Below are positions 33,240-34,812 of a stretch of 64,000 nucleotides of DNA, in pieces. Every line of letters begins with the position of its first letter. The first letter of the stretch is position 1. The DNA is taken from positions 1,696,001-1,760,000 of the forward strand of contig CBDEGZ010000003.1 in assembly GCA_965238175.1 (NCBI GenBank), read 5' to 3'. The position numbers and the translations under genes are program-made. Origin of the DNA: Gammaproteobacteria bacterium. Its GTDB lineage: Bacteria > Pseudomonadota > Gammaproteobacteria > CAJXQU01. Under the pieces are notes generated by a model, which saw nothing but the letters and a program-made list of their open reading frames with translations, had not been told where the DNA came from and ran no database searches.

Positions 33240-33724
33240 GTTATAAAAATTTTGACTTAGGCAGAGCTTATTATAGTCGAGAATATGAATCGAAAGGTAC
33301 AACACGATATTATCAAGAAGACTAAAGGTATTAAATTACGCTAAAGAAAGTAGCAATATTGCAAAAACCTGACGTTATTTTGAAATTTGTTGAGAAACGT
33401 TTTATACATAGAAACAAGCATATAAAACGCACGAAGGAAAAGCATTAATTAACAATAAGCCCTGATCTTGAAATCATAAACTTTGATTGCCTAAAGCAAT
33501 CGCAATGTCAATACTTTCAGTTGAGCAGAAATTGGAATATGCCAAATTGATGATGAACGAAGGGTATAACAACCCAATTACTAAGGCTGATGCCTCTCGA
33601 TGATTTCAACACATAACAAGTAACTATGGTGTCAAATCCAAGTTAATTGGCAAAATCAGGGTTCCAAAACGCGCGCTGCTTAGAACACCTCCCTCAGGGT
33701 CAGATACTGTCTTAAAGATCAAGT

Positions 33725-34711
33725 CTAAATGCCATTAATTTGATAATGAACATCAAAGGGTTTACCTGAATTCAACACCCCATAAGCCAACACCAACAGC
33801 TTTCTCATCACCGCGACCAAAGCGACCTTTTTCGGTTTTCCTTTCGCCAATAACCGTTCGTATAATGCCGCCATCATCGGGTTAAATCGCACGGCGACTA
33901 ATGCTGGCATATAAAGCGATTTGCGTAATTTCTTATGGCCTAATTTAGATAAAGAGGATTTATTGATACTGGAACCAGACTGACTTATTTTAGGTGTGAG
34001 ACCGGCATAACTCGCCACTTGTTTTGCGCTATTGAAAAATGCTATATCACCCAAAAAAGCCAGAATGCTCCATGCAGCTCGGTCACCAATGCCCTGAATA
34101 CTCGTGAGTAAAGCGACTTGCTTACTGAGTTCATCATTGCCATTAATAATTTTTGTAATGATGGTTTTGGTGGTTTTAATTTCTGCTTTAATAAACGTGA
34201 TGAAGCGATTGATTGAGCGTGTCGTTTGTTGATTTCGGCTGGCTTGTAATCGATTATTTTCTTGTGTCTTTGTTTTTTCTAATTGCCCTAACCGTATCAC
34301 CAACCGTTGTAAAGCATGATAGTCTGGGCTTTTAGGTGAATAAAATAATTGTTCATTATCAGATGTTGAAACAATATGCTCACAGTAGCGTGATATCAGT
34401 TGTGCATCGGCTTTATCTGTTTTGTTTCTCCTTAATTCCATCTTGGAAAATGCGTGGGTGGCAATCGGATTGACCACGATGACTTTTAGACCCTGCTGCG
34501 CTAAAAAAGTTGCCAGGTCAAAGCTATAAACACCGGCGGCTTCCAGACAAATGACAGGCTCATCCTGGTGTGTTTTTAAGTTTTTCAGCAAAGCGTTAAA
34601 TCCCTGCTTATCATTAGCAAACTGTGCATTGACATAATGGCCTTTCAATAAATACGCAACATTAAAAGTCAGTTTGGAAATATCAACCCCGACAAATAAC
34701 ATACTCTCCAC
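33725..34711 (-). CDS. IS110-family DEDD recombinase/transposase
   Basis: [44 protein letters not shown]. Confidence 0.95.
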
Positions 34712-34740
34712 CTTTTCGATAAGTTATACTTGAGCTGGAT

Positions 34741-34812
34741 AAATAACGTCATCGCATTCTTGTACTATTCGTGCTATCGCAGTGAAGCCGATGCACAAGA
34801 TACTGTTCGCAT
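34741..34812 (-). ncRNA. Putative bridge RNA donor-binding loop (partial)
   Basis: Minus strand: ACAGTATCT, then hairpin GTGC-ATCG...CGAT-A-GCAC, then AGTACAAG; the left guide equals the element's own right end. Confidence 0.7.

Follow-up and report, generated by a model that had tools for sequence, protein, structure and literature searches.

The window, by which we mean the whole stretch of DNA that was analysed (64,000 nucleotides), carries on its minus strand an intact gene for a 325-aa recombinase, together with the sequences listed in Table 1. The ATG start codon of the gene (34702) has a GGAG ahead of it, an alternative GTG start lies at 34711, and the stop codon occupies 33727-33725. 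An initial annotation of this DNA had assigned the product to the IS110 family. This was borne out by Pfam matches above cut-off to PF01548 (DEDD_Tnp_IS110; 2.1e-25) and PF02371 (1.7e-24), and by the alignment of residues 3-318 with the IS621 transposase (8wt6; E 7.5e-53). Among solved structures, the best match was PDB 9t56 (E 1.7e-56, residues 3-318 to 10-321), which we take from its chain name to be the transposase of ISCro4 and which was compared at the protein level alone. The D of GVD, the E of LEAAG, the two D of NKTDKADA (D..D) and the S of SGSS aligned with D11, E60, D102, D105 and S241 of IS621, the residues that passages of Hiraizumi et al. (2024; PMC11208158) name as catalytic. All five residues are identical at the IS621 positions. 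The protein has an N-terminal DEDD RuvC-like domain and a C-terminal serine Tnp domain, the same two-domain DEDD and Ser organization as the recombinase of the E. coli element IS621 (PMC11208160, PMC11208158). Conservation of these five residues suggests that the recombinase may well be functional.

A truncated element next to a tandem array

Read along the minus strand, the locus begins with the 3′ end of an IS481-like element (34962), which is followed by a tandem array, AAATGCGA-ACAGTATCT, a hairpin-forming stretch (TGTGCA...GCACG), AATAGTACAAG with AGTACAAG inside it (34766-34759), the recombinase ORF, TTGATC and, last, ...AAG-ACAGTATCT. The 9-mer ACAGTATCT is thus present twice, once in the leader of the gene and once at the right end, and has no further sites within the 64-kb window. 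Because the expectation from shuffled sequences was 0.31 and two or more matches were reached in 2 of 100 shuffles, the repeat is only mildly unusual when judged from the window alone; stronger support came from the relatives described below. Re-reading of the sequence confirmed the coordinates that the initial annotation had given for both copies of the 9-mer and for AGTACAAG, with the inner hairpin lying between the leader copy and AGTACAAG.

Homology to the closest relatives that were found, whose recombinases are 50-57% identical in amino acid sequence to that of the window, spans from AAATGCG (~34813) to ACAGTATCT (33702), and nothing is shared beyond either side. Since it ends precisely after ACAGTATCT, the right boundary of the element falls directly behind the CT of ...ACAGTAT-CT. 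A test that bounded the element by its core dinucleotide also gave a clear right boundary, with ...TAT-CT inside and GACCC outside, and showed the left boundary to be missing; the implication of the initial annotation that the window copy lacks its left end was correct. TTGATC stands 15 nt ahead of the element end. Members of the IS1111 group, which have the same protein family, carry their guide RNA (seekRNA) downstream of the gene, whereas in the IS110 group the RNA lies upstream. In the window the stop codon is followed by a non-coding stretch of 23 nt and the RNA lies upstream, which assigns the element to the IS110 group and not to IS1111.

The place of the missing upstream bridge RNA is occupied by the tandem array. 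Its last unit aligns to the native linker between the target-binding loop (TBL) and the donor-binding loop (DBL) of the relatives (positions 125-141 of covariance model R1, see below), a linker that reads TTTTTAACTTC in the relative L053. As the last unit coincides with this linker, the array probably grew out of it by expansion. The IS481-like element that abuts the array has 57 full-length copies in the genome, which are 99.2-100% identical, end in TGTAGAA...TTCTACA and are mostly flanked by 7-bp AT-rich target duplications. The copy in the window is without a target-site duplication (flanks CCTTATC and TTTAATA), and the simplest reading of this is that a rearrangement or deletion mediated by this IS removed the left part of the IS110 element. 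About 15 of the IS481-like copies are without matching duplications, which suggests frequent IS-mediated rearrangement in this genome. The stop codon of a 1075-aa NACHT/ankyrin-like ORF with many ankyrin-like repeats (36183-39410, minus strand) is supplied by the opening bases of this IS481-like copy (ctg TAG), and the C-terminus of the ORF was probably cut by the insertion.

Table 1. Features of the window and related remnants in the genome (C3, chromosome contig coordinates)
Feature	Position	Strand	Basis or remark
Right terminus: left-donor half ACAGTAT + CT core	33702..33710	-	Last aligned bases in the comparison with the Methylophaga MAG copy are ...ACAGTATCT
TTGATC, putative -35-like half of junction promoter	33717..33722	-	Spacing read from sequence; function predicted after Durrant 2024
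Recombinase gene, IS110 family, 325 aa, intact	33725..34702	-	Pfam and structure-chain alignments
Surviving 3′ part of bridge RNA (linker + donor-binding loop)	34751..34824	-	Model R1, positions 125-197
Basal stem, 3′ strand	34758-34751	-	Model R1
Right donor guide region (AATAGTACAAG)	34769-34759	-	Model R1
Inner hairpin	34797-34770	-	Model R1
Left donor guide	34806-34798	-	Model R1
Basal stem, 5′ strand	~34813-34809	-	Model R1
Perfect array of 12.4 tandem copies of a 12-bp unit, TTAAAGAAGTTA on + strand	34813..34961		100% matches
IS481-like element, 1226 bp, 344-aa HTH + rve transposase	34962..36187	-	Abuts the tandem array
Relic (a), last 142 bp of a second copy of the element	C3:974338-974479 (L002, C3:972838-975979)		94% identical; interrupted 9 nt from its end by an IS481-like copy that has a 7-bp duplication
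Relic (b), orphan left end, ~60 nt: AATCAAGTTGG, CT, TGTATCCTAGAA..., 5′ stem-loop	C3:2208992-2209052 (L130)		nhmmer E 5e-4; model 24.9 bits
Relic L012, decayed IS110-family gene fragment	C3:516836-517248		Own right end TTGATC-N9-ACGATACCT
Relic L010, decayed gene fragment	C3:3170288-3170872		Resembles the L006/L015 lineage; frameshifted
Relic L014, decayed gene fragment	C3:1341485-1341577		Abuts an IS481-like copy

Intact relatives and their bridge RNA

Relatives of the element were found in a Methylophaga MAG (L006), in a sister species of the same genus (L015, to which L051 is identical) and in metagenomes (L049, L050, L052, L053, L054 and the partial L077). Those that are complete have a length of 1262-1263 bp, except for L053 with 1331 bp. 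They extend ~175 nt past the point where homology to the window starts (~34813), up to a left terminus that reads CT-TGTATCTT in all seven relatives with an identifiable terminus (L006, L015, L049, L050, L052, L053 and L077). The same 9-mer occurs in the leader and at the right end of each of the six intact relatives having both ends, and the two places co-vary (T/G): L049 and L052 carry ACAGGATCT in both, and the rest carry ACAGTATCT. On a plasmid of Candidatus Fukatsuia, a copy with 42% amino acid identity has ACGGTATCT in its leader and again at its right end. More broadly, when the leader (-140 to -40) was compared with the first 60 nt behind the stop, the longest shared word reached 8 nt or more in 39 of 70 cognate loci, as opposed to 532 of 4830 non-cognate pairings. 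This comparison left out L051 (a duplicate of L015), the truncated L077 and L083, and nine loci with a short flank. This restricted test replaced a longest-common-word test over 300 x 200 nt, which was too noisy. Judged from these sequences, the repeat of leader and right end is a feature of the family.

A search with Rfam 15 returned no bridge-RNA family match in the window or in four intact relatives, only sub-threshold noise. Since Rfam 15 was blind even to intact relatives, its result is no test of a bridge RNA, and we built a covariance model of our own. For this model, termed R1 (214 positions, 49 pairs), ~214 nt of the left ends of seven intact relatives were aligned. The structure tested comprised a 5′ stem-loop, a long-range stem, a target-binding loop with an outer stem and an inner hairpin, and a donor-binding loop with a basal stem and an inner hairpin. 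In the seven relatives, 94.7% of the cells pair in this structure and 16 pairs change on both sides. None of 500 shuffles reached these pairing values, a figure that, coming from seven related sequences only, is not to be read as a probability; the fairer comparison is with controls in which the partner was slid by 1-3 columns, and there 32-41% paired. RNAalifold alone did not recover the basal stem of the donor loop and paired CTTGT of the left terminus with ACAAG of the right guide, which is guide-donor complementarity and not an RNA helix. The basal stem was supplied by hand and checked by its changes, one double change and one wobble in five pairs. Intact relatives match R1 over positions 1-214, and the Fukatsuia copy, which was outside the training set, gave a full-length match of 42.7 bits. 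In L054 the inner hairpin of the donor loop is enlarged, the right end lies ~240 nt past the stop, and the upstream bridge RNA matches the model weakly (50 bits).

According to passages of Durrant et al. (2024; PMC11208160), the left guides of a bridge RNA have the sense of the top strand and the right guides are its complement, the core being included in each. In agreement with this, the left donor guide equals the right end at nine of nine positions in six of six relatives. The reverse complement of the right target guide matches CT plus five flanking bases at 7/7 positions in five of six relatives and at 6/7 in L006. The left target guide, when compared with seven flanking bases plus CT, matches at 9/9 positions in L006 and L052, at 7/9 in L077 and at 6/9 in L015; matches are poorer in L049 and L050 (5/9 each) and in L053 (3/9, with seven contiguous matches if shifted by one base). 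The window copy and the relatives have one donor-loop core, AAATGCGAACAG(T/G)ATCTTGTGCA, and one form of right end, AAGACAG(T/G)ATCT, in common. Several traits recur in IS621 (PMC11208160, PMC11208158): the bridge RNA lies in the left end, the donor loop is ordered guide, inner hairpin, guide, the left guide reads in the sense of the right end, CT core included, and the -35 box is in the right end. The relationship to IS621 is distant, however. A blastn search with the whole element of a relative found no match in any E. coli genome searched. In a tblastn search of plasmids the best matches reached 40-42% identity, and a copy on an E. coli plasmid that was looked at more closely was not obviously IS621. 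The target family differs, as the relatives here insert at ...AAG(C/T)TGG-CT-GACCCC....

What remains of the bridge RNA and of the element in this genome

Model R1 gave one significant match in the window (45.2 bits, E 1.8e-8), which covers the linker and the donor-binding loop. All nine pairs of the inner hairpin are formed, and in two of these both partners differ from the consensus; the basal stem contains one non-standard pair. In sequence and sense, the leader copy of ACAGTATCT agrees with the core and the 7 nt that precede it at the right end. Together with the like agreement of leader and right end in six of six relatives, this upholds the earlier proposal that the leader copy serves as the left donor guide within the donor-binding loop of a bridge RNA; the placing of AGTACAAG inside the right donor guide, the CT core and the presence in the right end of the -35 half of a junction promoter were likewise supported. 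Positions 1-124 of R1, which include the 5′ stem-loop and the target-binding loop, have no counterpart in the window. Thus, the covariance search that the initial annotation had suggested recovered the donor-binding loop, but not the rest of the bridge RNA. What has been lost from the window copy amounts to ~150 bp and includes the left terminus, the -10 box, the 5′ stem-loop and the target-binding loop, so that of a complete left-end bridge RNA only the donor-binding loop with its linker is left. When the whole genome was searched with R1 and with an nhmmer profile of the left end, only the window site and an orphan left end were found, and no target-binding loop, although R1, having been trained on seven close sequences (effective number 1.33), could in principle miss a very divergent one.

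Because these parts are missing, the window copy cannot form the donor junction, rebuild the promoter or specify a target. The initial annotation had described it as a natural ortholog of a programmable recombinase; usable as it stands it is not, since only positions 125-197 of the 214 of R1 survive and the genome holds no target-binding loop. An intact copy of the element was not found elsewhere in the genome, which contains one truncated copy and fragments, nor were there several copies at guide-matching targets, the mark of mobility. All in all, we are confident that the locus is what remains, immobile and truncated on its 5′ side, of a bridge-recombinase element, an insertion sequence of the IS110 group. 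An intact recombinase ORF is unexpected in an old relic and counts against this reading, as do the imperfect left target guide matches of the relatives and the non-standard pair in the basal stem of the window. However, the units of the array match at 100% and identity among the IS481-like copies is 99.2-100%, so that the ORF may be intact because the damage is recent.

The other remnants in the genome bear on the missing left end. Relic (a) has its tail, ACAGTATCT followed by AACCCTGAGGGA, 1.2 kb further on; it also adjoins a 205-aa ORF. In relic (b), the orphan left end, the flank AATCAAGTTGG is the same as the target half of L052, the canonical left target half; the rest of that element is gone. 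We considered and rejected the possibility that an inversion had carried the lost left end of the window copy to the site of this orphan: the orientation fits, but neither fragment has a target loop and no IS481-like copy lies beside the orphan.

The left ends of intact copies had been predicted to begin CT-TGTAC. The sole left end of this family in the genome reads CT-TGTATCC, and the seven relatives agree on CT-TGTATCTT; the C proposed as the fifth donor base after the core is probably wrong. Left ends that lacked complementarity to the right guide would have spoken against the initial reading; those found are complementary, through CTTGTA, to six contiguous bases of the proposed 8-nt guide. 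The reverse complement of the right guide in the window, CTTGTACT, matches the CTTGTAT... of the orphan and of the relatives over these six contiguous bases and then departs; the left terminus of the window copy itself is absent. L053 has the A-N-TACAAG form of the right guide in common with the window (reverse complement CTTGTAAT), yet its terminus is CT-TGTAT. Joining the ends of the relatives gives ACAGTAT-CT-TGTAT, which is presumably the donor of IS621, as given in the initial annotation. That donor string has no occurrence in the text of PMC11208160 and PMC11208158, figures and supplements apart. According to Durrant et al. (2024; PMC11208160), the pairing of the right donor guide of IS621, to which that of the family here can be likened, is discontiguous and sets nine bases of RNA against seven of DNA. 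Discontiguous pairing and the case of L053 indicate that the contiguous reading of the guide over-interpreted its last base.

A similar correction applies to the junction promoter, which had been predicted to read TTGATC-N17-TACTAT after circularisation. The geometry and the -35 box stood, but the -10 box would be TATC(C/T)T: the would-be junction promoter of the relatives is TTGAT(T/C)-N17-TATCTT, and with the orphan end the -10 would read TATCCT. As the left terminus is absent from the window copy, the predicted TACTAT cannot be observed there.

The intact relatives consist of a CT core and a left terminus TGTATCTT bearing the -10 box, then the 5′ stem-loop, the target-binding loop, the linker, the donor-binding loop and the recombinase gene, and finally a right end of the form TTGAT(T/C)-N15-...ACAGTAT-CT. 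By analogy with the work on IS621, an intact ancestor would have been excised as a circle. Circularisation would join the right and left ends and thereby complete a sigma-70 promoter, from which a bridge RNA of ~200 nt would be made. Its donor loop would pair with the joined ends and its target loop with the insertion site, and a tetramer of the DEDD/Ser recombinase holding donor and target would exchange strands at the CT core. In the window copy, the left part would have been lost as the linker expanded in tandem and the IS481-like element took part in a rearrangement. We found no promoter-like site upstream of the bridge-RNA remnant on the minus strand; any present transcription of the remnant would possibly come from read-through of the co-oriented IS481-like gene.

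Alternative readings, significance and targets

The 9-mer brackets the gene on both sides and the interval 33702-34806 holds the whole ORF, an arrangement that would also suit a complete, compact element of ~1.1 kb with its left boundary at 34798-34806, ACAGTATCT being a terminal direct repeat or duplication and not an RNA guide. To our knowledge, IS110 elements make no such terminal duplications. Furthermore, conservation with the relatives goes on upstream of the 9-mer, in AAATGCGA, the relatives have ~175 nt more of a structured left end, up to CT-TGTATCTT, and the covariance model puts the 9-mer inside a loop of the RNA (positions 125-197). Passages of Durrant et al. (2024; PMC11208160) describe IS110 ends as having the core dinucleotide only. 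We therefore give hardly any credence to a compact element. The loss of the left part could also be apparent only, if the assembly had collapsed or wrongly joined the repeats of the array and of the IS481-like element and the real locus had a full left end. The junction itself would be in keeping with this, since a perfect array and a 57-copy IS are classic sources of mis-assembly. Against such an artefact, the 3.33-Mb chromosome contig resolves 57 IS copies, which suggests a long-read assembly, and completeness is 97.7%; moreover, with no target-binding loop anywhere in the assembly, there is nothing from which the locus could have been mis-joined. The chance that the truncation arose in this way is close to negligible.

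A relic that is still partly active deserves slightly more attention and is nevertheless very unlikely. The recombinase and an RNA reduced to the donor loop might carry out donor-only ('half-match') recombination between half-sites and so give rise to large rearrangements. The abstract of a 2026 preprint reports that donor-only (DBL-DBL) recognition suffices for excision of IS621. The ORF is intact with all its catalytic residues, the donor loop is structurally intact, and half-sites exist in the genome, namely the right end of the element itself, a right-end relic 756 kb from it (C3:973097) and, at a distance of 479 kb, the orphan left end (C3:2208992). If such recombination took place, the locus would be a guide-RNA-dependent driver of large inversions or deletions, or an element heading to domestication. 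However, the minus strand upstream has no promoter-like site from which the RNA could be expressed, the 5′ stem-loop, which is part of the RNA of the relatives, is missing as well, and no rearrangement joint attributable to the recombinase was seen.

The 5′-truncated relic, then, is a decayed member of the well-known IS110 bridge systems. It differs from IS621 in being without the 5′ stem-loop, the target-binding loop and the left terminus. It also differs from the intact relatives (L006, L015, L049, L050, L052, L053 and L077), which are complete and have target-loop guides that match their flanks, and it represents a separate, truncated lineage. Alone, the window copy is of little importance, being a dead representative of bridge systems that have been described in detail. 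The comparison shows that the guides of a bridge RNA can be read by eye from raw sequence and checked against the flanks, a check that succeeded in six independent relatives. It also delineates a small clade with the donor junction ACAGTAT-CT-TGTAT and the target ...AAG(C/T)TGG-CT-GACCCC..., of which intact members (e.g. L015, L052 and L053) would be usable natural orthologs. In the genome itself, one IS burst, that of the 57 IS481-like copies, is seen eroding an older family of RNA-guided IS to fragments.

With respect to targets, the right flank of the window copy, CT followed by GACCCTGAGGGA, resembles that of relic (a), CT followed by AACCCTGAGGGA, and both resemble a small repeat family of the form ...GTAAGGC-CT-GACCCTGA(G/T)G.... 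At least 10 unoccupied sites in the genome, AATCA(A/T)G(C/A)TGG-CT-GACCCCTTG(A/G)TT, are of the target type that is occupied in L049, L050 and L052. Suitable targets are thus present in the genome, and no element is left to use them. In L015, a second CAGTATCTGACCCCA (2550-2566) lies 57 nt downstream of the right end of the intact element and could be a solo junction of right end and target from an earlier copy. A repeat family of the genome that ends in the near-palindrome AATCA(A/T)GCTGGCTGACCCCTTGATT, for example at C3:921464, 921831, 631809, 925943 and 3182293, is of the same type as the insertion sites of the relatives.
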